This document shows positions 3,622-48,960 of a stretch of 64,000 nucleotides of DNA, in pieces. The stretch is from positions 9,940-73,939 of the forward strand of contig JANLRZ010000218.1 of the NCBI GenBank assembly GCA_031362155.1, given 5' to 3'. How positions within the stretch are numbered: position 1 is the stretch's first letter; each line of letters starts with the position of its first letter. The stretch is from Acidimicrobiia bacterium. Its GTDB lineage: Bacteria > Actinomycetota > Acidimicrobiia > IMCC26256 > JAENVU01. The position numbers and the translations under genes were made by a program. The notes under the pieces are model-generated. The model worked only from the letters and a program-made list of their open reading frames with translations, did no database searches and was not told where the DNA came from.

Positions 3622-4584
3622 ATGCAGCCGGATCTGCTCGGGCGCCGACTCCTCATCGTCACGGGGAAGGGTGGGGTCGGCAAGAGCACGATGGCGGCCG
3701 CGCTCGCGCTGGTCGCGGCCAATCAAGGTCAGCGCGTCCTCGTCGTCGACGTCGACGCCAAGGGGACGATCGCGGAGCGGTTCGAGACCGCGCCGATCAG
3801 CTTCACGCCCCGCGAGGTGATGCCGGGGATCTCGCTGATGGCGATGGACACCGAGGCGAGCCTGGCGGAGTACGTCAAGCTGAACCTCAAGATCCCGATC
3901 CTCGGGCGGCTCGGGCCGATGGCGCGGGCACTCGACTTCGTGGCGACTGCGGCGCCCGGCGTCCGCGAGATTCTGACCATCGGCAAGATCTGTTGGGAAG
4001 TGCGCGAGTCGATCGAAGGTCGCGCCGGCTGGGATCTCGTCGTCGTCGATGCCGCGGCAACCGGGCACGTCATAGCGCAACTCGGCGCGCCCGACGCGAT
4101 CAGCGACATGGTCGCGGTCGGCCCGGTGCGGAGTCAGACCGAGTGGATGAGCGACCTGTTGTCGGACCCGGCGGTGACCGCGCTCAACGTGGTCACCACC
4201 CCGGAGGAGATGCCGGTCGCCGAGACGATCGACCTCGTGGGTCGGGCGCGGCGGGAGCTGCAGGTTCCGCTCGGAGTGGTGATCGTGAATCGGGTGCTGC
4301 CGGAGTTGTTCACCCATGCCGACGAATCCATCTTCGATGCGTTGGCCGAACCGTCGGTGCGCGATCGACTCGCCGCCGCCGGCGCGGGCCCCGGCGTCGG
4401 GTCGGTGCTCGATGCCGCGCGGCTAGCCGTCTCGATGCGGCGGAGTCGGGTCCCACATCTCGAGCGGCTGCGTGAGGACGTCGACCTGCCGCTGATGTTC
4501 GTGCCGTATCTCTTCGCCCGATCCCAAGGCCGACGCGAAACCGCGTTGGTCGCCGACGCCTTGACCGCGGAGCTCGGGCTGTGA
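3622..4584 (+). CDS. ArsA/Get3-like P-loop ATPase (first of a pair)
   Basis: N-terminal deviant Walker A VTGKGGVGKST; about 320 aa. The stop overlaps the next start (GTGA at 4581-4584). Confidence 0.8.
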   Translation: MQPDLLGRRLLIVTGKGGVGKSTMAAALALVAANQGQRVLVVDVDAKGTIAERFETAPISFTPREVMPGISLMAMDTEASLAEYVKLNLKIPILGRLGPMARALDFVATAAPGVREILTIGKICWEVRESIEGRAGWDLVVVDAAATGHVIAQLGAPDAISDMVAVGPVRSQTEWMSDLLSDPAVTALNVVTTPEEMPVAETIDLVGRARRELQVPLGVVIVNRVLPELFTHADESIFDALAEPSVRDRLAAAGAGPGVGSVLDAARLAVSMRRSRVPHLERLREDVDLPLMFVPYLFARSQGRRETALVADALTAELGL

Positions 4585-5768
4585 GCGCGCCGAGCTTGGA
4601 GGCGCTGCTCGCGACCAAGGAGATCATGGTGTTCTGCGGCTCGGGCGGAGTCGGCAAGACCTCGGTCACGGCGGCGGCGGGCCTCGCGGCGGCGTCGCGC
4701 CTGGGCGGCAAAGTCCTCGTCGTCACCGTCGACCCCGCGAAACGCCTGGCCGATGCGCTCGGGGTCGAGAGCATCGGCAACGTGGAGCGGCAGGTGCCCG
4801 AATCGGCGTTCACCAGCGCCGGACTGGAGTCGCGGGGCGAGCTGTGGGCGGCGATGCTCGACACGAAACAGAGCTGGGACGCCATCGTGATGCGTCACGC
4901 CCCGGACGAGGAGACCGCGTACCGCATCCTCGACAACCGCCTGTACGACAACCTGACGAGCCGGTTCGTGCAGAGCCACGACTACGTCGCGATGGAGCGG
5001 CTGTTCGAGATCCATCAATCCGGTCGGTACGACCTGATTCTCGTCGACACCCCACCGACCCGGAACGCGCTCGACTTCCTCGATGCGCCGGCCCGCATGG
5101 CCGAGTTCTTCGGCGGACGCCTGCTGCGCTGGCTCACGGCGCCCTACCGCGTCGGTGGGAAACGCGGCGCGCGCATGATCACGATGGCGAGCCGGCCCTT
5201 CTACCAAGTGGCCGATCGCCTGCTCGGGAGTCAGTTCCTCCAGGACATTGCCGAGTTCTTCCTCAACTTCCAATCGATGTACGAGGGCTTCGTCACCCGG
5301 TCGCGCGCGGTCGAGGCGCTCCTGCACGACAAGCGGACGAGCTTCGCGGTCGTGACGACCCTGGAAGACGCGCCCTTGCGCGAGGGTGAACGGTTCTGCG
5401 ACGAGTTGTTGCGCCGGGAGTTCCATCTCGGCGCGTTGGTCCTCAACAAGACGTTGCCCCAGACACTGTTCTCACCGGAGGCCGCTCACGCGGCGCAGGC
5501 ACTGCGTCGCGACGCGGCCGCGATCGCTACCGACCTCGGGCTCCCATCCGAGTTGGACGACGTCACGCGGGTGTTGACCACAATTGGCACGTCGTTCGAG
5601 AACTATGCGGTGGTCGCCCATCGGGAAGCCGAACTCCGCAACGAGCTGTCGCGGCGACCTGATGTCGTGGTCGACGTCCCGACCTTCGCCGACGATATCT
5701 CCGACCTCACGAGCTTGGCTCGGATCGCGAACCGCCTGATGCCGCACGAGGCACCTGATCGACAATGA
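4581..5768 (+). CDS. ArsA/Get3-like P-loop ATPase (second of a pair)
   Basis: Walker A CGSGGVGKTS and ArsA-type DTPPTRNALDFLDAP segment. Translationally coupled to the upstream paralogue. Confidence 0.8.
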   Translation: MSAPSLEALLATKEIMVFCGSGGVGKTSVTAAAGLAAASRLGGKVLVVTVDPAKRLADALGVESIGNVERQVPESAFTSAGLESRGELWAAMLDTKQSWDAIVMRHAPDEETAYRILDNRLYDNLTSRFVQSHDYVAMERLFEIHQSGRYDLILVDTPPTRNALDFLDAPARMAEFFGGRLLRWLTAPYRVGGKRGARMITMASRPFYQVADRLLGSQFLQDIAEFFLNFQSMYEGFVTRSRAVEALLHDKRTSFAVVTTLEDAPLREGERFCDELLRREFHLGALVLNKTLPQTLFSPEAAHAAQALRRDAAAIATDLGLPSELDDVTRVLTTIGTSFENYAVVAHREAELRNELSRRPDVVVDVPTFADDISDLTSLARIANRLMPHEAPDRQ

Positions 5769-36265: not shown

Positions 36266-37276
36266 CTATTCCTCGAACAACACCGAGTCCACGAGGGATT
36301 CGCTCACGAATCCTCCCTGCGGATCGAAGCGGTAGTTCGCCAGATCCTTGCGGAACTCGAGGTTCATATCGGGTGCGCCTTCGCGGTTCTTCTCGACGCT
36401 CATGATGACCCAGCGCTTGAACTGCTCCGCGCGGACCGGGTCATAGGCCAGATGCGACTTCGAGATCGCCACTGCCTTTTCGTTCATCAGAATTGCGATG
36501 TCGGATTCGTGGGCCAATGCGGTCGAGCCCCGCAGGTGGTGGAGCCGGAGCCGGCGACTGGTGAGACCATCGCGATCCGATGCGGCCAACGCAATGACCG
36601 GCACCTCGACCACCATCGCGAGCTCCTTGAGGCGTTCGGTCAGGTGGGTCGTCCGTTCCTCGGTGCTGGCGGTGTTGCCGGTCATCGGGACCTTCTGGAG
36701 GTAATCGACGAAGAGCGCGGTCGGCCCGGATCGGTGCTCCGACACGATGTGCGCGAGCTCCACCACGCCGGTGCGCATGCCCGAGCCCTGGACGAGGTGA
36801 AGCCGCGGCCCGTACGCCTCGAGGCGGTGGAACGCTTCCTCGCCGAGCGGATCAGTGGTGAGCGCGGACGCCGGCAAGGCGCCGAGGGCGACTTCCTGGG
36901 CGATGGTCCGGAGTCGTGTGAGTTCGACGATCTCGTCCGGTCGAGCGAGGCTGCCGAGCTCCATCGCCAAGAGTCGTCCAAGGAGCGAGTGCGGGGAATG
37001 CTCGTAACACACGAAGATTGCGGTGTGTCCCTGCATGGCCATCCACCGCGCCCACTGCAGCGCGGCAACGGTCTTGCCGATCCCGGGCCGGCCGCCCAGC
37101 AGGACGAGGTCCTGAGCCCGGAACCCGCCGTTCAAGACGTCGTCGAGTGGTTGGAAACCCGTTGGAAACTGGACCGAACGTGCCTGTGGCGCGGCGGGGC
37201 CGAGCCCGGCGAGCAGGTCGGCCGCGGTGGCCTTCGCCACGTGGTTGGTCTGGTCTGTCTGTAGGTCGACCATCAT
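36266..37276 (-). CDS. Stand-alone DnaB-C-terminal-domain / KaiC-like RecA-superfamily ATPase, last gene of the Tad operon
   Basis: PTGFQPLDDVLNGG, Walker A GGRPGIGKT, Walker B ALFVDYLQ, LRGSTALAHESDI, VEKNREGAP. It lacks the DnaB N-terminal domain (336 aa). The ATG overlaps the tadC stop (ATGA at 37273-37276). Confidence 0.75.
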   Translation of the reverse strand: MMVDLQTDQTNHVAKATAADLLAGLGPAAPQARSVQFPTGFQPLDDVLNGGFRAQDLVLLGGRPGIGKTVAALQWARWMAMQGHTAIFVCYEHSPHSLLGRLLAMELGSLARPDEIVELTRLRTIAQEVALGALPASALTTDPLGEEAFHRLEAYGPRLHLVQGSGMRTGVVELAHIVSEHRSGPTALFVDYLQKVPMTGNTASTEERTTHLTERLKELAMVVEVPVIALAASDRDGLTSRRLRLHHLRGSTALAHESDIAILMNEKAVAISKSHLAYDPVRAEQFKRWVIMSVEKNREGAPDMNLEFRKDLANYRFDPQGGFVSESLVDSVLFEE

Positions 37277-38193
37277 CCGCCTCCGAGGTTGGTGTTCGCG
37301 ATTCGGACAGCCGCAGGGCCGGCGACGACAACGAAGAGTGCGGGAAGGATGCAGAGCACGACGGGGAAGACGATCTTCACCGGCATCTTCATCGCCCGCT
37401 CTTCTGCCCGGATGCGACGCTTCTCGCGCATTTCGTCGGCCTGGACTCGCAGTACCTGCGCGATCGGGATCCCGTATCGCTCGGCCTGGATGAACGCGTG
37501 GACAAAGGAGCGCAGGTCCTTGACATCAGTGCGCTCGAGGAGCGACTCGAGCGCCCGGTCACGAGTGACACCGATCTGGATGTCCTGGAGCGTGCGACCG
37601 ATCTCCTGGGGCAGTGGTCCGTCGTTCTCGGCGATCTTGGACATCGCGGCCTCGAAGCCCAATCCGGCCTCGACGCAGATCGTGATCTGGTCGAGCACAT
37701 CCGGCAACTCTCGCTCGATCGTTGCCTGCCGATCCTTGGCCCGCAGGTCCATCAGATAGTCGACGGCGAAGTAGCCGATGAAGAAGAGCACCGCCCCGAG
37801 CAGGGCGCTGAGCAGCGATGGGTTGGCGACGAACGCCAACGCCCCGGCGGCGCCCATGACGAAGGCCAGCATGACTTTGACCGTCAGCAGTCGCTCCGTC
37901 GGCCAGGAGTCGGAGAGTCCGGCGAGAAAGGCCCGGCGTTCGAGGTGTTCCATCACGCCCTGGGGCGTGACTCGCCGCGCCCGGGCCACCAGGCGATTCA
38001 TGATCGGCGTCCACACTCGATCCGTGGCCGATTGGGCGAGGGTCGCCTGACGCAGGTTGGTCATCGGCGTGCCGGCATGCGCCAGGTTGGAGCGTGCAGC
38101 GCGGCCTTCGACCTGCATCCCACTGAATGCCCACCACGCCACGGGTGCAGCGGCCGCGATGGCGAATGCAGCGAACCAGATTCCGATTGGCAT
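37273..38193 (-). CDS. tadC: Tad/Flp pilus inner-membrane platform protein TadC (T2SS-F family)
   Basis: ATG 38193 preceded by aggagag. N-terminal TM, a cytoplasmic helical domain (ELPDVLDQITICVEAGLGFEAA, QAERYG) and C-terminal TMs. Positioned after tadB. Confidence 0.8.
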   Translation of the reverse strand: MPIGIWFAAFAIAAAAPVAWWAFSGMQVEGRAARSNLAHAGTPMTNLRQATLAQSATDRVWTPIMNRLVARARRVTPQGVMEHLERRAFLAGLSDSWPTERLLTVKVMLAFVMGAAGALAFVANPSLLSALLGAVLFFIGYFAVDYLMDLRAKDRQATIERELPDVLDQITICVEAGLGFEAAMSKIAENDGPLPQEIGRTLQDIQIGVTRDRALESLLERTDVKDLRSFVHAFIQAERYGIPIAQVLRVQADEMREKRRIRAEERAMKMPVKIVFPVVLCILPALFVVVAGPAAVRIANTNLGGG

Positions 38194-38203
38194 TTGAACT
38201 CTC

Positions 38204-39184
38204 CTAGAAGACGAGACGCGTGATGCGCTTGAGCCACAGCGCACCAACGGTCATGAATCCGGCGGCCGCGATCAGCATCACGACCCCGATCGAATGGGTG
38301 GTGAGCTCGCTGATGTAGGTCGGGTTGAGGATGGTGATCACCAGCAACATCGCGACCGGCAGGATCAGCAGGATGAGGGCCGAGAATCGGCCTTCGGCGC
38401 TGAGGGCCTTGATCTGACGACGGATCCGGTTGCGGTCCCGGATGGTTGCGTAGACGTTGTCCAGAACCTGGGCAAGGTCGCCACCGACCTGGCGGTGGAT
38501 GTCGATGGCCTGCACGACCCAGTCGAAGTCCTCACTCATGACGCGGTCCGCCATGGCCTCCAGAGCCTCGTGGACATCACGGCCGACTCGGGTCTCGACG
38601 ACCAGACGGTGGAACTCTTCGGATGTCGGCGCCTCGGATTCGCGGGCAACGGCATCGAAGGCCTGCATGATCCCGAACCCGGCTCGCAAGCTTCCACCCA
38701 TGAGGGGGAGCGTCTGCTCGAGTTGGTCGGCGAACTTCTCCGATCGGCGATGGGCCAGCGTGGCGAGCCCACTCCGGCACACGACCGGAACCAGTGCACC
38801 CAACGCCAATCCGAGGAGGAGATTGACCAGCGCCGCGGTGACGGCGAAGACCGCGAAGGTCACGGTGGTCGCGAGGACGACGAACTCGCTCGGCCGCATC
38901 GCGATGCCGGCGCGCTCGAGCGCTCGGTTCAGGTTGCTCCCGCGCTCGTTCCGCTCGAGCGACCGCTCCGCGGCTCGGGTGGCGTGTTCCCCCAACGTGG
39001 TGATGACCGAACCGTTGCGAACGCCCTTGATCGACGCGCCGGCGATCTGGCTCCGTGCCGCTCGGGGCGCGAACGCCAGCACGAGTCCGACGAGCAGGCC
39101 GAGGAACAAGACCGCAACTCCGATCCACAGTGCGGCCGAACTCTGGTACCAGGCGGGATCGCTCCCGGTGAAGGCGAGCGTCAT
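38204..39184 (-). CDS. tadB: Tad/Flp pilus inner-membrane platform protein TadB (T2SS-F family)
   Basis: TM - cytoplasmic domain (LEQTLPLMGGSLRAGFGIMQAF, IHRQVGG) - TM architecture. The ATG overlaps the tadA stop (ATGA 39181-39184). Confidence 0.8.
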   Translation of the reverse strand: MTLAFTGSDPAWYQSSAALWIGVAVLFLGLLVGLVLAFAPRAARSQIAGASIKGVRNGSVITTLGEHATRAAERSLERNERGSNLNRALERAGIAMRPSEFVVLATTVTFAVFAVTAALVNLLLGLALGALVPVVCRSGLATLAHRRSEKFADQLEQTLPLMGGSLRAGFGIMQAFDAVARESEAPTSEEFHRLVVETRVGRDVHEALEAMADRVMSEDFDWVVQAIDIHRQVGGDLAQVLDNVYATIRDRNRIRRQIKALSAEGRFSALILLILPVAMLLVITILNPTYISELTTHSIGVVMLIAAAGFMTVGALWLKRITRLVF

Positions 39185-40599
39185 GACCGAACCTTTCGGT
39201 TCGCGGCGACGAGGGTGATCTCCGCAGCGCCGAACAGATGCGCGGGGAGTTCGATGCCGTTGTCACGGAGTCGGTCCGAGAACTGCGGCCGGAGCCCCGT
39301 GCTGATCGGTTGTCCCCGGAAGAAGCCGTGCTCGTCGATGCCCGCGGCGTAGTCGAACTTGTACAGGTCGGCGAGCGTGATCACGTCACCTTCCATGCCG
39401 CAGACCTCGCTGACCTGGGTCACGCGACGGGTGCCGTCTCGCAGGCGGGTGAGGTGGATGATGACGTCGACCGCCGAGGCCACCTGCTCGCGGATTGCTC
39501 GAACCGGTAGGTCCATGCCCGCCATGAGCACCATGGTCTCGATCCGGGCGAGCGCATCGCGCGGCGAGTTGCAGTGGAGGGTGGTCAACGAACCATCGTG
39601 GCCGGTGTTCATCGCCTGCAACATGTCGAGGGCTTCCGCGCCGCGGACCTCCCCGACAATGATGCGGTCCGGCCGCATGCGGAGCGAGTTGCGAACGAGA
39701 TCCCGGATGGTGACCTGGCCCTTTCCTTCAATGTTCGGCGGGCGTCCTTCGAGCCGAACCACGTGTCGTTGCTTGAGCTTGAGTTCGACCGCGTCTTCGA
39801 TGGTGACGACGCGTTCCTCCTCGGGAATGAAGCTCGACACGACGTTGAGCAACGTGGTCTTCCCGGTGCCGGTCCCGCCGCTGATGAGGATGTTGAGCCG
39901 ACCGCTCACACACGCCTCGATCAGCGCGACCATTTCGGGAGTCAGCGTGCGGCGGTCGACGAGGTCGTCGGGGCTGAACGCGTGGTGCGAGAACTTTCGA
40001 ATGGTCAGCACCGGACCGTCCACCGCCAAGGGCGGGATCACTGCGTTGACGCGGGATCCGTCCGGCAGCCGCGCATCGACCATCGGGGACGATTCGTCGA
40101 TGCGGCGCCCGACCTTCGACACGATGCGCTCGATGACCTGACGGAGGTGGTCCTCGGACAGATATCGCGAGTCGGTCAACGTGAGTTGGCCGGCGCGCTC
40201 GACGTAGATGCCGTCGGTCGCGTTGACCATGACCTCGGTGACGGTCGGATCGGCCAGGTAGCGTTCGATCGCGCCCAGACCGAGGACGTCGTCGGTGACC
40301 TCGGCCACGACCCGTGAGCGTTCGGCCGCCGAGAGGGGAAGCTGCTCCGATTCGATGACCCGTCCGATTTCCTGGACGACCAGCGCATCGAGCTGTTGCT
40401 CGGACAGTGACGAGTCGTACAGCCGCTGGCCCATCCGGGCGAAGAGCGCATCCTGGGCTCGGCGCTTCAGCGCGGCGAACGGGTCATGCACGGTGGGCGC
40501 GCTGTCGGATTCCGGCGCGACGTTCCGAGAGTGAGGAAGCGTCGAGAGCGGAGTCGGAGACTCGGCCCGAGCCGCCTTCAGTCGATCCGAGAGGGTCAT
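39181..40599 (-). CDS. tadA: Tad/Flp pilus secretion ATPase TadA/CpaF
   Basis: ATG 40599 overlaps the tadZ stop (ATGA). Walker A ISGGTGTGKTTLLN, Asp/His boxes (RVVTIEDAVEL, IIVGEVRGAEALDMLQAMNTGHDGSLTTLH). The 173 codons upstream in ORF 39181..41118 are out-of-gene. Confidence 0.92.
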   Translation of the reverse strand: MTLSDRLKAARAESPTPLSTLPHSRNVAPESDSAPTVHDPFAALKRRAQDALFARMGQRLYDSSLSEQQLDALVVQEIGRVIESEQLPLSAAERSRVVAEVTDDVLGLGAIERYLADPTVTEVMVNATDGIYVERAGQLTLTDSRYLSEDHLRQVIERIVSKVGRRIDESSPMVDARLPDGSRVNAVIPPLAVDGPVLTIRKFSHHAFSPDDLVDRRTLTPEMVALIEACVSGRLNILISGGTGTGKTTLLNVVSSFIPEEERVVTIEDAVELKLKQRHVVRLEGRPPNIEGKGQVTIRDLVRNSLRMRPDRIIVGEVRGAEALDMLQAMNTGHDGSLTTLHCNSPRDALARIETMVLMAGMDLPVRAIREQVASAVDVIIHLTRLRDGTRRVTQVSEVCGMEGDVITLADLYKFDYAAGIDEHGFFRGQPISTGLRPQFSDRLRDNGIELPAHLFGAAEITLVAANRKVRS

Positions 40600-41813
40600 C
40601 GGTTGTCCTTCCGTCGGCGGAATGTGCCGGTCGTCGGGCTGGGTGGGGTTGGTGCGGCGTCGCCCATCAGGCGCTCCACCAGTTGGGTGAGCGAACGACT
40701 CACTGGCGACTTCTGGGCGCCCTCGAGCAGTGGGATGCCTTGGTTCATGGACAACGGCACCGACCGGGAGCTCGGGATCGAGACGCTGATTTCGAGGCCG
40801 ACAGTTCCCTCGATGTCTTCGGCGGAGAGTCCGACCCGTGCGTCGGCCCGGTTGAGCGCCAAGTGCCGCCGTTGGGTCGTCAAGCCGAGCAGATCGAATG
40901 CCTCGATCTCTTTCCGAACCGCTCGGGCACTCGCGACGTCGGTTCCCGCGACGAGGACGAGGTCGGTGGCGGATTCCATCGCCGCGAGCGTGTTCTCGTC
41001 CAAACCCGCGCCGGTGTCGATGACCACGAACCGGAACTCGCCGGCCAGCAGCGTCAGGATTCGGTGGATGTCCTCCGTGGTGACCAGGTCGGCGCCGGCA
41101 GGAGTGTGCGGTGCGCACAACACATAGGCGCCGCTCGGGTGGGAAGTCAGAAACGCCTTCAGAGTCGTGGCGTCGAGCGCGGCGCCCTGGGCCACGGCAT
41201 CGGTGATGGTGAACTCGGGTGCCAGGCGCATGGCATTGCCGACGTCGCCGAACTGCACGTCGAGGTCCACGATGACGGTCTCGCCGTTCGCAGCGTTCGC
41301 GAGCCCGACGGCGAGGTTCGACGCAATCGCAGTCTTGCCCGCGCCGCCTTTGGGCGAGACGACAGCAATCGTGCGTTGGTCGTTGGTTTCGACGGTCGTC
41401 TCGGCGTGCGTTTGGAGGCGTTCGGCCGTCTCGATCGCGGTGTCGAACGCGGACCGCACGTCGCCGAGGTCTGATGTTGGATCGACGATGTCGCGTACAC
41501 CCGCTCGGAGCGCTCGTCGGTAGAGCTCCGGTGTCGGCGTGGCAACGAGCAGGACACAGAGGTCGGGGCGGGCCCGATCCAGGTCCGTTGCCACCTCGAG
41601 CGCGAGGTCGGTGTCGATCCCCGGGCCGAGGGCGACCACCTGGGCGCGGTGGTCCTCGACGGCTTTCAGTGTCGCGGTTGCACCCTCCGAGCCGGAGATG
41701 GGCTCGGCCCAGGTTGTGAGCTCACCGTTGAGAGTGCCCTCGAAGGAGTCCCGGACTCGGGCCTCCCACGCCGGCTCGCTGGTGGCGAGAAGCATGCGGG
41801 TGGAGGAGCTCAT
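40596..41813 (-). CDS. tadZ: TadZ/CpaE: pseudo-receiver N-terminal domain + ParA/MinD-family ATPase
   Basis: Deviant Walker A VVSPKGGAGKTAIASNLA, DLDVQFGD, FVVIDTGAG. The N-terminal ~120 aa are REC-like. The ATG overlaps the cpaB stop (ATGA 41810-41813). Confidence 0.8.
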   Translation of the reverse strand: MSSSTRMLLATSEPAWEARVRDSFEGTLNGELTTWAEPISGSEGATATLKAVEDHRAQVVALGPGIDTDLALEVATDLDRARPDLCVLLVATPTPELYRRALRAGVRDIVDPTSDLGDVRSAFDTAIETAERLQTHAETTVETNDQRTIAVVSPKGGAGKTAIASNLAVGLANAANGETVIVDLDVQFGDVGNAMRLAPEFTITDAVAQGAALDATTLKAFLTSHPSGAYVLCAPHTPAGADLVTTEDIHRILTLLAGEFRFVVIDTGAGLDENTLAAMESATDLVLVAGTDVASARAVRKEIEAFDLLGLTTQRRHLALNRADARVGLSAEDIEGTVGLEISVSIPSSRSVPLSMNQGIPLLEGAQKSPVSRSLTQLVERLMGDAAPTPPSPTTGTFRRRKDNR

Positions 41814-42622
41814 TTGGTGACCGTGCTCCGCTGCTGAGCGATGGAGGGGGTCTCGGCGACGTCGCTCGGTTCGATGGACAACCAGAGGCGACCGAACTCC
41901 AGGGCGTACACCATCCGCTCGGTGGCGGTCGGGTCCAACGCCAAGGTGACCAGCATCTGACTCGAAGGTGCATTTCCGGGCTTGTTCGTGTCGGCGGTCT
42001 TCTCACCGCTGGTGTCGTCGGAGGTGGTCACGGTGCCCGTCAGCTGGACGTTGGTGACCAGCACCTTGTGGAGGATCAAGCGGGTCGAGCTCAACGACGA
42101 CTTGCCGTCCGCTACGGTCACGCCGTCGATGTTGAGATCGCGACCGGTGTTGTTCTGGTAAGGATCGAACGACGCCAACACCGCGACCCGGGCGCCCGGA
42201 GTGACCACCCCGCCGAGAACCCGTTGCGGGTCGAGGGCGATGGTCGTGCGCAGGAGGCCGGGCGGCACCTGGACATTGGCCCCGGTGGCGGAGAAGTTGC
42301 TCTTGGCGACGAAGCGCGTGCTCAGCACTTGCTCGCCCGCAACCAACGTCGTTCCCGCCACCTTGTTGCCGAGGGCCTTCACGCTCGTCGCCGCGCCATC
42401 AGCCATGACCTTGCGGCTGATCGACTCGAGGCCCACCCGATCGCCGAGCTCTTTGGCGGGGGTGCCGGCCGGAACCGATTCCTTGACGACGAGCACCTTG
42501 ACCAGTGCCTCGCCGGCCTGGGCCCGGTGTTCGGCCGCGTTCACATAGGTGACGATGCCGATCGTTCCGGCCAGCGCGAGAACCACCGCAACGATGAGTC
42601 CCATGATCCTTCGAGTTTCCAC
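41810..42622 (-). CDS. cpaB: Flp pilus assembly protein CpaB/RcpC (SAF domain)
   Basis: N-terminal TM METRRIMGLIVAVVLALAGTIGIVTYV, then a SAF-like region VKVLVVKESVPAGTP...; 270 aa. In the standard position upstream of tadZ. Confidence 0.8.
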   Translation of the reverse strand: METRRIMGLIVAVVLALAGTIGIVTYVNAAEHRAQAGEALVKVLVVKESVPAGTPAKELGDRVGLESISRKVMADGAATSVKALGNKVAGTTLVAGEQVLSTRFVAKSNFSATGANVQVPPGLLRTTIALDPQRVLGGVVTPGARVAVLASFDPYQNNTGRDLNIDGVTVADGKSSLSSTRLILHKVLVTNVQLTGTVTTSDDTSGEKTADTNKPGNAPSSQMLVTLALDPTATERMVYALEFGRLWLSIEPSDVAETPSIAQQRSTVTK

Positions 42623-42652
42623 GGTGCAACCTTTCTAGAACGGTCGTCTGCC

Positions 42653-43639
42653 TCAGCAGGCGCGACGATCGCTGGTATTGGGTGTAAGGGTGTTGACGTC
42701 GCAGATGCGAACGGCGCGGACGAGGGTGTCGATGCCGCTCGTCGCACAGCAGGTGCCGGAGACGACGCCTCTGGTGAAGACGAGGTCGAGGTAGCGCGCC
42801 GCCTGGGCACCGGTCGTCTGGTAACCGACCAACTTGACGAAGACGAAGGCGACGATGTGGAACTGCGCGTTCGAGCCGTTGCCCGTCGCGGTGTCGAACA
42901 CCGGCAGCACGAACGCCTGACCGGAGTTCTTCAGGAAGGTGAGTTCACTGTCGAGACTGTTCGAGAAGGCGCCGGTGTCGCCGGGGAGGTTGGTGCCGAT
43001 CGTCACGAGGCCGGGGTAGCCGTTGAGCGTCCAGTCCTTGATGTCGTTGTTCGAGTTCGATCCACCGTCGAAGTCCTGGATGCCCCAGTTGCCGGGCACA
43101 TTCGTTCCGCATGCGTCGGGTTGCGACTTGCCGTAGGTGATCCGGATCGTCCCCGAGTCTCCGGTCGGGCCCGACGGGTAGTTGAGCCACTGCTGCATCT
43201 GCAGGTTCGAGTTGATGCAGAGTCCGAACGGCCGGAGGTTGTTGACGCCGGTCGGGATGCCCCATTCGGCGGTCGTGATGGCGTGGATCTTCTTGTTGTT
43301 GACGCCGAAGATGCCAGCGAACGCGTAGTCAACGGTGCGGCTGGCATCGACGGTGACGTTCCCCGAGGTGGGGGTGATGTTCGCGGAGCAACTCTCTAGT
43401 GTGGCCGCGGAATAGTTGCTCGAGACGTAGTCGCCGGCTGCTGACGCGCAGCCGACCTTTCCGGTCGCGTAGTCGCCGGCGGAGGCGAGGGCGGCGCCGT
43501 CGGCCGCGGTCACGAGATGGCGCCGGGCGGTCCAGGCCTGGCCCGCGTCGATGGAGAACGCCGCGAACCCAAAGATCAGGACGGAACAGATCGCGACGAT
43601 CACCGCAACTGCGCCACCTTCATCGCGTGCTACTCGCAT
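42653..43639 (-). CDS. TadG-like pseudopilin / Tad_N domain protein
   Basis: ATG 43639 (MRVARDEGGAVAVIVAICSVLIFGFAAFSIDAGQAWTARRHLVTAADGAALASAG) matches the TadE/G-like N-terminal signature. It overlaps the tadE 3' end by 10 nt. Confidence 0.75.
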   Translation of the reverse strand: MRVARDEGGAVAVIVAICSVLIFGFAAFSIDAGQAWTARRHLVTAADGAALASAGDYATGKVGCASAAGDYVSSNYSAATLESCSANITPTSGNVTVDASRTVDYAFAGIFGVNNKKIHAITTAEWGIPTGVNNLRPFGLCINSNLQMQQWLNYPSGPTGDSGTIRITYGKSQPDACGTNVPGNWGIQDFDGGSNSNNDIKDWTLNGYPGLVTIGTNLPGDTGAFSNSLDSELTFLKNSGQAFVLPVFDTATGNGSNAQFHIVAFVFVKLVGYQTTGAQAARYLDLVFTRGVVSGTCCATSGIDTLVRAVRICDVNTLTPNTSDRRAC

Positions 43640-44058
43640 TTGAACTCGCCTTTGCCGGTCAGCGTCACGGTTTGACTGCCCCAGAGTGGGATGTCCAGAT
43701 TGGTGTTGGCCTTGACGGTGACGGTGACCCGTGCGCCCGAGGCCCGGAGGTCGCAGGGGTTCCCGCTGCTCGGGTTGACCGTGACGACTGGCGACTGCGT
43801 CGTCGGCAGCACCCCCGCCAGTGCGGAGGTGACCTTGTCGTTGACGTCGGTCTGGGTGGACTGCGGAAGCGCCGCGACTCGCGCACCCTCGCGGGCGGCG
43901 GCCTGCAGGCCCTGGAGACGGTTGAAGTAGATCGACCACTGGATGATGCCGAAGACCAGCAGGATCAGAATGGGGAGGACGATGGCGAGTTCAACGGCGG
44001 CGGCGCCGCGTTGGTCGCGGTTGCGGCATTCGCGGTTGCGGTGTTCGAAGTGGTGCAT
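43630..44058 (-). CDS. tadE: TadE-like pseudopilin
   Basis: ATG 44058 preceded by aggag. QRGAAAVELAIVLPILILLVFGIIQWSIYF matches the TadE-family N-terminus with a G/A prepilin-type site. Confidence 0.8.
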   Translation of the reverse strand: MHHFEHRNRECRNRDQRGAAAVELAIVLPILILLVFGIIQWSIYFNRLQGLQAAAREGARVAALPQSTQTDVNDKVTSALAGVLPTTQSPVVTVNPSSGNPCDLRASGARVTVTVKANTNLDIPLWGSQTVTLTGKGEFKCE

Positions 44059-44108
44059 CGTCGACTCCTGCGAGGAGGGCTCGTTGCCGAGTGAGAAGAA
44101 GTCCGTCA

Positions 44109-44137
44109 CCCGGTGCTCGCCGAACGCGAGCACCGGG
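44109..44137 (-). terminator. Strong 12-bp perfect GC-rich hairpin between flp and tadE (attenuator/partial terminator candidate)
   Basis: cccggtgctcgc-cgaac-gcgagcaccggg read directly. It lies 15 nt after the flp stop and about 50 nt before the tadE ATG. There is no clean U-tract. Confidence 0.5.
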
Positions 44138-46844: not shown

Positions 46845-47000
46845 TCGGCGCCGATGCGCGGCATCGGGCGTACTGATCTGGGTGTGCCCTCGGCAGGATT
46901 CGAACCTGCGCACACGGGGCTCGGATTTCGGCGCCGATGCGCGGCATCGGGCGTACTGATCTGGGTGTGCCCTCGGCAGGATTCGAACCTGCGCACACGG
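46845..47000. repeat. Perfect 73-bp tandem direct repeat (46845-46917 and 46928-47000, period 83 bp) carrying the 3' 33 nt of tRNA-Arg plus 40 bp of its 3' flank
   Basis: Both copies read tcggcgccgatgcgcggcatcgggcgtactgatctgggtgtgccctcggcaggattcgaacctgcgcacacgg (checked base by base). Each copy contains the hairpin ccgatgc-gcg-gcatcgg. The repeat edge falls at tRNA nt 40, just 3' of the anticodon loop. Confidence 0.9.
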
Positions 47001-47039
47001 CTCCGGAGGCCGATGCTCTATCCCCTGAGCTACGAGGGC
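46968..47039 (-). tRNA. tRNA-Arg (anticodon CCG)
   Basis: Reverse complement: GCCCTCG TA GCTC AGGGGATA GAGC A TCGGC CTCCGGA GCCGT GTGC GCAGG TTCGAAT CCTGC CGAGGGC A. The acceptor stem is a perfect 7 bp, with a T-loop TTCGAAT and anticodon CCG. There is one U:U at pair 27:43. CCA is not encoded. Confidence 0.9.
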
Positions 47040-47106: not shown

Positions 47107-47817
47107 TCAGGCCGGTTCGGTCGGGGTGAGGTGCGCTTCGAGCGAGCGGTTCAGTGCGTGGAGGGTGGCGCGGGCGGCGGCTTCGATCCGGCTCCCGCCG
47201 GCGGCGATCCCGAGGCGCGTGGTGTCGTCGGCATGGACGGAGACCGCGATGACGTAGACGCCGTCGGTGTCCTGATCGGCAAGTTCGTTGGTCCAGTCGA
47301 TCGCGGTGGTCAGGTCGGACGCGAAGGATCGCAGCCCTTCGAGGGTCGCGTTCGCGGCGCCGGCGATGCCCGCGCTCGCTGCGGCCCGGCCGATGATGCG
47401 GCGGCCGCCGAAGGTCAGATGCACTTCGAGTTCGTCGGTGTCGGGAAAGGTCAGGACCGCGAGGAGGCGAATCCGTGACCTCGGCCCGGTGTCGTTCGCC
47501 GACGCTTCGCCGTCAGTGCTGCTCGTCCCCGCGGCAGGAGGGTCGATCACTGCCGGGCCAATGGTCGTCGGCTCCGGAGGGGCGGCGGGGGCGGGCACTT
47601 CTACGGTGCGCCAGCGGACGATCTCGAGTGCGACGGGCTTGTCGGCGTGGCGGTACGCAATGCGCGCCGCTTGCTGAGGGAGGGTCGCCGGCGGTTGGTC
47701 GCCCTGCACCTGGACCTGCACCAGGAGCATGTCGTCGCGCTCGGTGAACCCGGCGGCGCGCACGCCGGGCAGCTTGCGGAGTTCGAGTTCGAGGTCGTCG
47801 AGCTGGGAGGGTTCCAC
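47107..47817 (-). CDS. Hypothetical protein (236 aa), two small domains joined by a Pro/Ala-rich linker; co-operonic with the GGDEF gene
   Basis: GTG 47817, 1 nt after the GGDEF stop, with GAAGGA 7 nt upstream. N-terminal domain LELELRKLPGVRAAGFTERDDMLLVQVQV, linker PAPAAPPEPTTIGPAVIDPPAAG, C-terminal domain RLLAVLTFPDTDELEVHLTFGGRRIIGRAAA.... No family recognised. The N-terminal 128 aa of ORF 47107..48201 are antisense/out-of-frame to the GGDEF gene. Confidence 0.5.
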   Translation of the reverse strand: MEPSQLDDLELELRKLPGVRAAGFTERDDMLLVQVQVQGDQPPATLPQQAARIAYRHADKPVALEIVRWRTVEVPAPAAPPEPTTIGPAVIDPPAAGTSSTDGEASANDTGPRSRIRLLAVLTFPDTDELEVHLTFGGRRIIGRAAASAGIAGAANATLEGLRSFASDLTTAIDWTNELADQDTDGVYVIAVSVHADDTTRLGIAAGGSRIEAAARATLHALNRSLEAHLTPTEPA

Positions 47818-47818
47818 G

Positions 47819-48703
47819 TCAGCGTCCTTCGTGACGAGCAGCTTTGGCCTCGTAGAGGCGCTGGTCGGCCAGGGCGACGAGCGCCTCGGCGCTTTCGGCT
47901 TCGGTGGGACACTGGGCAACGCCGTAGGAGAACGGCGGGCAGCTCCGTTCGCCGACTCGCGATGCGCCGATGCGTTCGAGCAGCGGTGGCACGTCGTCGG
48001 GGTCGGTGCTCGGCAGGATGAGCGCAAACTCGTCGCCGCCGATCCGGGCCGCGTTGTCGCCGAAGCGAAGGACTCGGCGGAATCGCTCGCCGAGGGCCCG
48101 CAGCGCGGCGTCCCCGGCCGGGTGGCCGTCGGTGTCGTTGATCTGTTTGAGGTCGTCGAGGTCGATGAGCACGAGCGTGAACGGCCAGCGGTACCGCACA
48201 CTGCGGGCGGTCGACATCTCGAGCAGCCGGTCGAACGTCCGCCGGTCGAAGAGGCCGGTCAGCGGGTCGTGCCAGGAGTCGTAGCGGAGGACTTCCATTC
48301 GTAACGCCACGACGCAGAGGCTCACGACGAGCGCACCGTCGACCGCCGCCGGATCGAGCGCGGGTTCGGTATAGAGGCCGGGGGCGGCATCGAGGAGGGC
48401 CTCACCGCCAGGATCGTCGAGGGGCTTGCGGCCCGCCCGGAACACCTGTCGGCCCAGCCCGGCTTCGTCGATCACAACCGCCGCGTCGACCAGATCGTGC
48501 TCGGCCACCAAGGTGTCGAGCGCGTGGTAGATGATCGAGAGCCCGCTCTGCGTGCTGGTCAGACTGTTGACCAACTCGCCGCCCAGGCCGGTCACCGCAG
48601 GACCTCCGGCCATGGGGATGAAGAGGTGCTCGTCGGGAAGGGGATCGCCCTCGACAGGCAACAGCGCGGCGAGTCCGCGTCCGAGACCACCCTGTCGTGC
48701 CAC
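47819..48703 (-). CDS. GGDEF-domain diguanylate cyclase with unknown N-terminal domain and a ParB-like N-terminal GLGRGL peptide
   Basis: DPLTGLFDRR, DLDDLKQINDTDGHPAGD, RIGGDEFALIL (intact GGDEF). Start preferred at GTG 48703 (GGGAGG 6 nt upstream), giving M-ARQGGLGRGLAALLP...; ATG 48727 is the alternative. Confidence 0.85.
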   Translation of the reverse strand: MARQGGLGRGLAALLPVEGDPLPDEHLFIPMAGGPAVTGLGGELVNSLTSTQSGLSIIYHALDTLVAEHDLVDAAVVIDEAGLGRQVFRAGRKPLDDPGGEALLDAAPGLYTEPALDPAAVDGALVVSLCVVALRMEVLRYDSWHDPLTGLFDRRTFDRLLEMSTARSVRYRWPFTLVLIDLDDLKQINDTDGHPAGDAALRALGERFRRVLRFGDNAARIGGDEFALILPSTDPDDVPPLLERIGASRVGERSCPPFSYGVAQCPTEAESAEALVALADQRLYEAKAARHEGR

Positions 48704-48960
48704 GAAGTTCCTCCCATTCGGCCCCATCGGCGCTGTCGTGTCACGCTCTGCCGCCCCTACGTGATCAGTGTCGGACCGTTCTGTCCCCGGACCGGCAGCT
48801 TGTGCAGATTATCCGCCACGCGCGGTGCTCGCGTCATCGGTCCTCGGCACTCCTCGCGACCGGACATCCCACGCAGCGGTTCACCACCAAAGGCATCGGG
48901 GCGGAGCGATGGCGTGTGCGATGCTGACCGGCTCCCGCCGCCGACCCAACTGTGTGACTC

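Follow-up and report, generated by a model that had tools for sequence, protein, structure and literature searches.

Why does a diguanylate cyclase carry, at its extreme N-terminus, what looks like the peptide by which the partition protein ParB engages the ATPase ParA, and what might this peptide do on an enzyme of cyclic di-GMP (c-di-GMP) synthesis? The question is raised by a gene in a 64,000-nt stretch of DNA from an Acidimicrobiia bacterium (assembly GCA_031362155.1, contig JANLRZ010000218.1, positions 9,940 to 73,939 of the forward strand); the whole stretch is referred to as the window, and its positions are used throughout. Through short N-terminal peptides of their partners, ParA/MinD ATPases determine where DNA, carboxysomes, chemoreceptor arrays and division sites lie, and c-di-GMP enzymes are known to act locally. 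When compared at the sequence level with the ParB of its lineage, the first 16 residues of the cyclase are a copy of the ParA-binding motif, and by the same kind of comparison the peptide is a genuine, translated and strongly conserved motif.

Translation start of the cyclase

The gene, the motif and the ribosome-binding site lie as follows.

47819..48703, minus strand: coding sequence of the diguanylate cyclase, 294 amino acids (aa), GTG start codon at 48703-48701, TGA stop codon at 47821-47819
48656..48697, minus strand: ParB-type ParA-binding motif, cyclase residues R3-P16 (RQGGLGRGLAALLP), a sequence match with a predicted function
48715-48710, minus strand: Shine-Dalgarno sequence GGGAGG, with a 6-nt spacer to the GTG start of the cyclase

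The N-terminus of the cyclase is MARQGGLGRGLAALLP; translated from the GTG at 48703 it reads MARQGGLGRGLAALLPVEG..., and with the frame read on, MARQGGLGRGLAALLPVEGDPLPDEHLFIPMAGGPAV... An earlier note on this DNA had placed the start at this GTG, with GGGAGG 6 nt upstream, and had pointed out that a start at an internal Met would exclude the peptide. We compared the start site across 27 orthologous cyclase loci, and in 26 of them a start codon (25 GTG, 1 TTG) stood exactly five codons ahead of the first Gly of GLGRGL. A Shine-Dalgarno-like site of the GGAG/GAGG type was present 3-18 nt upstream of the equivalent start, again in 26 of the 27 loci, and the orthologous proteins are mostly 293-296 aa long and start at the equivalent codon. 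Five loci (L009, L013, L028, L040 and L053) have an in-frame stop 6-9 codons upstream of the first Gly of the motif, so that the motif cannot be far from the true N-terminus. The alternative start at ATG 48727 yields MGPNGRNFVARQGG..., which adds 8 residues and lacks a ribosome-binding site. Both this start and the internal Met were rejected on the comparative evidence from start codons, Shine-Dalgarno sites and in-frame stops; judged from the sequences, a start at the internal Met is very unlikely, and the GTG of the earlier note is retained.

A putative promoter lies about 100 nt upstream of the cyclase start, with one such site found against 0.1 expected, as a match to the consensus alone.

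48808..48837, minus strand: sigma-70-like promoter match, ATGACG / 18 nt / GATAAT

Conservation of the N-terminal peptide

To count conservation, we took the best 120 of 2,904 whole-protein matches as the orthologue set (60-89% identical) and, among these, the 99 whose called N-terminus reaches the motif region. The 120 orthologues mostly begin M/V-x-R-Q-[GS]-G-L-G-R-G-L-A-x-L-L-P, and those without the motif are fragments or have a start call that makes them shorter. GLGR-x-L was invariant in 99/99, both in GLGR with its Arg9, the central Arg of the peptide, and in the Leu that follows, and LLP was kept in at least 97. The linker that follows the motif (20 to ~60 residues) varies freely in length and composition among the orthologues, with indels of up to ~40 residues. 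The earlier note had named a lack of conservation in orthologues as grounds for giving up the idea, and this point is now answered in favor of the finding, with the GLGR-x-L core kept and the linker variable.

At the nucleotide level, the 11 core codons of the motif differ almost only at third positions and occur in 25 distinct versions. The pattern used to choose the loci of the genome scan described below holds codon positions one and two fixed. Unbiased support for conservation of the amino acids therefore comes from the 99-protein set together with loci L001, L002, L075 and L076 and the window, which are independent of the pattern. In the 64-kb window, the codon pattern for GLGRGL occurred once, against 0.05 expected. 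A scan of viral contigs with the motif pattern gave no matches, and a 16-position motif profile had no match among 1.84 billion representatives, a search in which even perfect matches score ~30-33 bits and stay under the reporting threshold.

Comparison with the ParB proteins of Acidimicrobiia

The ParA-binding motif has been defined as [LIF]G[KR]G[LIF] and reported in the ParB-fold proteins ParB, PadC and KorB (bioRxiv 10.1101/2025.10.10.680097). The cyclase has LGRGL at residues 7-11, in agreement with this definition, on an N-terminus that is predicted to be disordered (predicted local distance difference test, pLDDT, below 50). For the comparison we used two Acidimicrobiales loci with the order rsmG-parA-parB, in which ParB begins MERRSGLGRGLAALLPSDPE (L015) and MVERRSGLGRGLAALLPSDPE (L033). 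The ParB of L015 matches all of Pfam ParB_N, HTH_ParB and ParB_C, and the adjoining ParA matches AAA_31/CbiA. All of the 120 best homologues of this ParB carry x-R-R-S-G-L-G-[K 58% / R 42%]-G-L-[AGES]-[AS]-L-[I/L]-P. Their motif starts at residue 5-7 in 119 cases and at residue 4 in one, and that of the cyclases at residue 5-7; the 11-mer GLGRGLAALLP is common to 16 of the ParBs and 54 of the cyclases.

A profile of 16 positions, built solely from the N-terminal peptides of Acidimicrobiia-type ParBs, was run on the window translated in six frames. The N-terminus of the cyclase scored 21.2 bits (E 1.2e-5) and was the single significant match, the next best site reaching 9.2 bits. With the same profile, 75 of the 120 cyclase orthologues scored at least 15 bits versus 0 of 120 control proteins. 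The only sequence in the PDB that matched the 30-aa N-terminus of the cyclase was Spo0J of Thermus thermophilus (1vz0, KPSGLGRGLEALLPKTG), a match that is weak alone (E 1.2) and serves as a pointer. The shared 11-mer and the profile score bear out the claim of the earlier note that the cyclase carries a ParB-type N-terminal peptide, which, as far as sequence can tell, matches the ParA-binding motif of the ParBs of the class so closely that neither the core nor the spacing to the N-terminus sets the two apart.

We also took a census of the motif by scanning 185,579 species genomes with a DNA pattern for GLGRGLAxLLP (CTN/CGN codons), which returned 72 loci. In-frame N-terminal occurrences fell into two classes only, namely ~25 loci of the cyclase family, nearly all labeled Acidimicrobiia, and 12 of ParB type, which were assigned from the GERR box and the sequence context at the N-terminus, with the Pfam check made on the ParB of L015. 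The census required this codon choice, A at +6 and LLP, so other carriers of the motif may have been missed. Three loci of the cyclase family (L009, L016 and L049) come from metagenome-assembled genomes (MAGs) titled 'uncultured Burkholderiales'; their neighboring genes are of actinobacterial type, so the label is probably an error of binning or labeling. GLGRGLA.LLP was also found internally in conserved open reading frames at L036, L044 and L045 (Thermoanaerobaculia/Acidobacteriota), at L003, L008 and L014 of Stenotrophomonas and at other loci, in contexts such as ...GASGLGRGLAVLLPALAL... (a probable membrane segment) and ...PLGLGRGLALLLPE...; these occurrences may be due to chance or to a wrong frame.

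The body of the cyclase is not that of a ParB. In a search at E<=0.1, none of ParB_N, HTH_ParB and ParB_C matched the cyclase, the only matches being GGDEF and a weak GGDEF_2. The Pfam model of ParB_N begins only at residue 30 of ParB, and this accounts for the absence of a ParB family name for the cyclase.

Architecture of the cyclase

The AlphaFold2 (AF2) model of the cyclase has a mean pLDDT of 83.8 and, with the orthologue alignment, divides the protein after the motif into the following parts.

48590..48655, minus strand: variable disordered tether, about residues 17-38, from AF2 and the orthologue alignment
48278..48589, minus strand: conserved alpha/beta domain, residues 39-142, AF2 pLDDT 73-94
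47834..48274, minus strand: GGDEF catalytic domain, residues 144-290, from PF00990 and Foldseek
48026-48040, minus strand: active-site motif RIGGDEF/GGDEF, with GGDEF intact and invariant in 52 aligned orthologues
48056-48067, minus strand: RxxD inhibitory site (I-site) RFGD, five residues before GGDEF, with R213 and D216 invariant

Residues 1-35 are modeled as disordered with a one-turn helix at 11-14, and pLDDT falls below 50 at residues 1-26 and 33-35. The peptide is not packed onto the protein's own domains in the model. The middle domain (~100 aa) is highly conserved among the orthologues and ends in a long helix, residues 123-142, that runs into the GGDEF domain. No Pfam or PDB sequence matched this domain even at E<=10. 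The earlier note had described an uncharacterized domain of about 130 aa at this place; the absence of a database match holds, but the region consists of two parts, a disordered linker of ~20-35 aa and a folded domain of ~100 aa. A likeness of the middle domain to GAF/PHY-GGDEF proteins was considered and rejected, in that the long Foldseek alignments had a root-mean-square deviation (rmsd) of 15-20 Å and were non-identifying, with matches to GGDEF dominating the search. Within the middle domain, PGLGRQVFRAGR resembles the start of the N-terminal motif, and it gave false motif matches in truncated orthologues.

The catalytic domain is recognized by PF00990 (E 1.4e-31, 109.9 bits vs a cut-off of 23.8), by TIGR00254 (E 5e-33, 114.1 bits vs a cut-off of 37.4) and by Foldseek, which matched the cyclase to solved GGDEF domains at E 1e-14 and an rmsd of ~2.6 Å; the three agree with the intact GGDEF domain (RIGGDEF) that the earlier note had read from the sequence. 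In the 52 aligned orthologues D181, D183, K186, N189, D198, R220 and the GGDEF residues 222-226 are invariant, and by analogy with PleD we take these residues to bind metal and substrate. An RxxD I-site is found in many diguanylate cyclases, though not in all. From its residues, the cyclase looks catalytically competent and inhibitable by its product. Its modeled layout would be that of a docking peptide, a flexible tether, a sensor-like domain with a stalk, and a catalytic domain.

Gene neighborhood

Directly behind the cyclase lies a second gene, here called X; farther away the window encodes a complete Tad/Flp pilus cluster.

47107..47817, minus strand: gene X, 236 aa, GTG start 1 nt after the stop codon of the cyclase
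36266-44133, minus strand: complete Tad/Flp pilus cluster with a KaiC/DnaB_C-like ATPase, TadC, TadB, CpaF, TadZ, RcpC, a TadG-like and a TadE-like protein
40596-41813: TadZ-like protein (PF10609/PF13614/PF01656) with the deviant Walker A motif KGGAGKT, 6 kb from the cyclase

X follows the cyclase directly in 27 of 29 loci, the remaining two being cut by the end of the locus, and argS lies divergently upstream of the cyclase in 25 of the 29. Loci without the divergent argS belong to a lineage of lower G+C content, whose proteins are 49-58% identical; they retain the motif as well as X. What is conserved as a unit is the cyclase together with X, usually divergent from argS. X has 856 homologues, all unnamed, and falls into no Pfam family. 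Its AF2 model (pLDDT 84.6) comprises an N-terminal alpha-beta-beta-alpha-beta domain of ferredoxin-like type, a Pro/Ala-rich linker and a C-terminal (beta-beta-beta-alpha)x2 domain that resembles the leucine- or isoleucine-binding allosteric domain of LeuA/citramalate synthase (Foldseek E 1e-5 to 3e-3); a weak Pfam match to LeuA_dimer accords with this result. X may be a regulator that binds a small molecule, or else an effector of c-di-GMP.

L075 encodes, in this order, X, a phosphoesterase, a histidine kinase, a response regulator, a KaiC-like ATPase and an aldehyde dehydrogenase, and the genes for the response regulator and the KaiC-like ATPase are direct neighbors. The flanks in the window are the same, but there ~7 kb of Tad genes separate the response regulator, which is of LuxR type, from the KaiC-like ATPase, so that relative to L075 the Tad cluster looks like an insertion. 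No parS-like site (TGTTNCACGTGAAACA, allowing up to 3 mismatches) was found in the window, and there is thus no sign of a local partition complex.

Other features of the window were recorded as well. A perfect 73-nt direct repeat lies at 46845-46917 and 46928-47000, with a spacing of 83 nt; its second copy spans the 3' half of a tRNA-Arg(CCG) gene (46967-47039, minus strand) and 39 nt of its downstream flank, and the repeat could be a tandem duplication, a remnant resembling an attachment (att) site or an assembly artefact. Two adjacent, overlapping ArsA/Get3-like P-loop ATPases (PF02374) are encoded at 3622-4584 (plus strand) and 4581-5768 (plus strand), 43 kb from the cyclase; they have the deviant Walker A motifs GKGGVGKS and GSGGVGKT and are distant members of the ParA/MinD-like superfamily.

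Proposed docking onto ParA and its alternatives

Diguanylate cyclases act as dimers. For ParB, published work shows that the central Arg/Lys of its ParA-binding peptide touches the trans subunit, and full activation of ParA requires two juxtaposed peptides, as in the closed ParB dimer (PMC12462528). We think it slightly favored, at a probability of roughly 0.55, that the peptide lets the cyclase dock on a ParA-class ATPase in its dimeric, ATP-bound form; the likeliest partner would be the chromosomal ParA/Soj on the nucleoid. In such a complex, the two symmetric peptide pockets of the ParA dimer would meet the two tethered peptides of the cyclase dimer and, as the cyclase works only as a dimer, docking would concentrate or orient two of its protomers. 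The synthesis of c-di-GMP could then be tied to the nucleoid-bound ParA-ATP state, with ParA-dependent localization or promotion of the dimer gating it. A cyclase dimer with two peptides could also stimulate the ParA ATPase and compete with ParB in a signal-dependent manner, an outcome that would be compatible with the gating of synthesis. X, which has the predicted fold of a ligand-binding domain, probably serves to modulate the cyclase or to read it out. The proposal builds on a motif that is translated, conserved and identical to that of ParB, on an N-terminus predicted to be disordered, on an intact GGDEF domain and I-site and on a conserved pair of cyclase and X; we infer from these the binding of ParA and the identity of the partner ATPase, as well as what X does and which way control runs.

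Several points weigh against docking onto the chromosomal ParA. Canonical partners of ParA are usually encoded beside their ATPase, but the ±10 kb around the cyclase in L001, L002, L075 and L076 contained no ParA/CbiA/AAA_31 gene. The flanks of the core differ family-wide, the cyclases having R-Q-[GS], always Arg and LLP, whereas the ParBs have R-R-S, Lys or Arg, and [IL]P; such sequence differences could mean a different partner or function. Co-occurrence of ParB and the cyclase has been seen at the level of the class rather than of a genome, and the organisms behind the cyclase loci are mostly uncultured MAGs. It is also from the identity of the motif that we infer the interaction. The family-specific flanks leave room for a distinct ParA/MinD paralogue, and the peptide might target an orphan ATPase of this family elsewhere in Acidimicrobiia genomes, with the flanks providing specificity; according to a preprint, each ATPase has a dedicated partner where several ParA/MinD systems share a cell (bioRxiv 10.1101/2022.06.09.495121). 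No such ATPase is conserved in the four neighborhoods just named, however, and bona fide ParBs with genes beside parA have exactly the same core 11-mer, for which reasons we regard an orphan partner as unlikely. Only a little less doubtful, in our estimate, is that the resemblance to ParB arose by convergence and that the function of the peptide is unrelated to ParA, for example as an autoregulatory segment, a contact site for X, a signal for membrane attachment or degradation, or a nucleotide- or DNA-binding tail. A short and glycine-rich motif, the lack of an adjoining ParA gene and a conserved partner X whose function is unassigned would all suit convergence. It accounts less readily for the sharing of an identical 11-mer, of the N-terminal distance and of the disordered type of tether with ParBs of the same class, for the restriction of N-terminal occurrences in the census to ParB-type proteins and the cyclase family, and for an AF2 model in which the peptide stays unpacked.

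The earlier note had also proposed TadZ/CpaE, encoded 6 kb away, as the docking partner. TadZ belongs to the ParA/MinD family, sits in the window within a full Tad cluster (CpaF, TadB/C, RcpC, TadE/G) and has the deviant Walker A motif given above, and docking onto it would couple c-di-GMP synthesis to the placement of pili. However, the Tad cluster was absent from the ±10 kb around the orthologues in L001, L002, L075 and L076, including those that are 81% and 78% identical, and at L075 no Tad genes stand between the response regulator and the KaiC-like ATPase. The proximity of TadZ is thus specific to this lineage, and TadZ was rejected as a partner by synteny. The motif moreover matches the ParB of the lineage, whose known partner is the chromosomal ParA, and we know of no ParB-type activating peptide for TadZ. 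Docking onto TadZ is accordingly the least probable of the alternatives, and in our judgment a very improbable one, and the chromosomal ParA remains the partner that we favor.

Comparison with known systems

With ParB/Spo0J (residues 1-20 of T. thermophilus Spo0J; R13 of Myxococcus xanthus ParB), the cyclase shares the same core GLGRGL-A-x-L-L-P, placed 5-7 residues from the N-terminus in an unstructured region before the folded domains, and it is expected to be dimeric, so that two peptides could be presented together. Unlike ParB/Spo0J, it has no ParB_N (CTPase), HTH or ParB_C domain and its body is that of a diguanylate cyclase, which speaks against parS binding and a CTP clamp; it is not encoded beside parA, its flank is R-Q-G in place of R-R-S, and its Arg is never Lys. 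The proposed arrangement would be analogous to that of McdB, PomX/PomY, PadC and KorB, in which a short basic and hydrophobic N-terminal peptide on a cargo or adaptor engages a ParA/MinD ATPase. The peptides of McdB and PomX are not known to copy the ParB motif, and these proteins are encoded with their ATPase. To our knowledge, none of these proteins is an enzyme that makes a second messenger. PadC and KorB, unlike the cyclase, keep the ParB-CTPase fold (bioRxiv 10.1101/2025.10.10.680097).

Among cyclases, studies on Pseudomonas aeruginosa DgcP with the polar hub FimV and on the clustering-activated WspR (PMC7033161, PMC3663191) describe localization by a partner or by clustering, to which our proposal is similar; as described there, their recruitment uses no ParB-type peptide or ParA-class ATPase. 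SiaD-SiaC is a further parallel, with a stand-alone GGDEF protein, a helical stalk and a gene for a small partner, and 7e6g is among the top structural matches of the cyclase. The fold of X differs from that of SiaC, being LeuA-allosteric-like, and the pairing of X with the cyclase is one of neighboring genes.

Significance

No description of a GGDEF protein with a ParA-binding motif was found in the full text of open-access papers and bioRxiv, an absence that is not proof; the earlier note, likewise, was aware of none. Peptide-mediated coupling to ParA/MinD ATPases and localized cyclases are already established; what appears to be new is a ParB peptide on a cyclase that is conserved across the bacterial class Acidimicrobiia. 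We tentatively propose, at somewhat less than even odds, that the ParB peptide has been transplanted onto an enzyme without the ParB fold and that this class-wide cyclase is a signaling cargo or regulator of the chromosomal ParA. The case would be a natural instance of motif transplantation onto an enzyme, and the cyclase might, depending on a signal, compete with ParB for ParA.

Together, the cyclase and X make up an unnamed two-gene module, conserved throughout a class of actinobacteria that has been little studied. If the proposal is true, c-di-GMP would be made on, or in step with, the ParA-ATP-bound nucleoid, or the dynamics of ParA would be tuned by a signal-responsive cyclase that competes with ParB. 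A cyclase with the ParB docking peptide would offer a concrete mechanism for localized or cell-cycle-coupled synthesis of c-di-GMP. The peptide of the cyclase suggests a testable link between c-di-GMP and chromosome positioning, which would directly connect chromosome segregation with second-messenger signaling at the molecular level.

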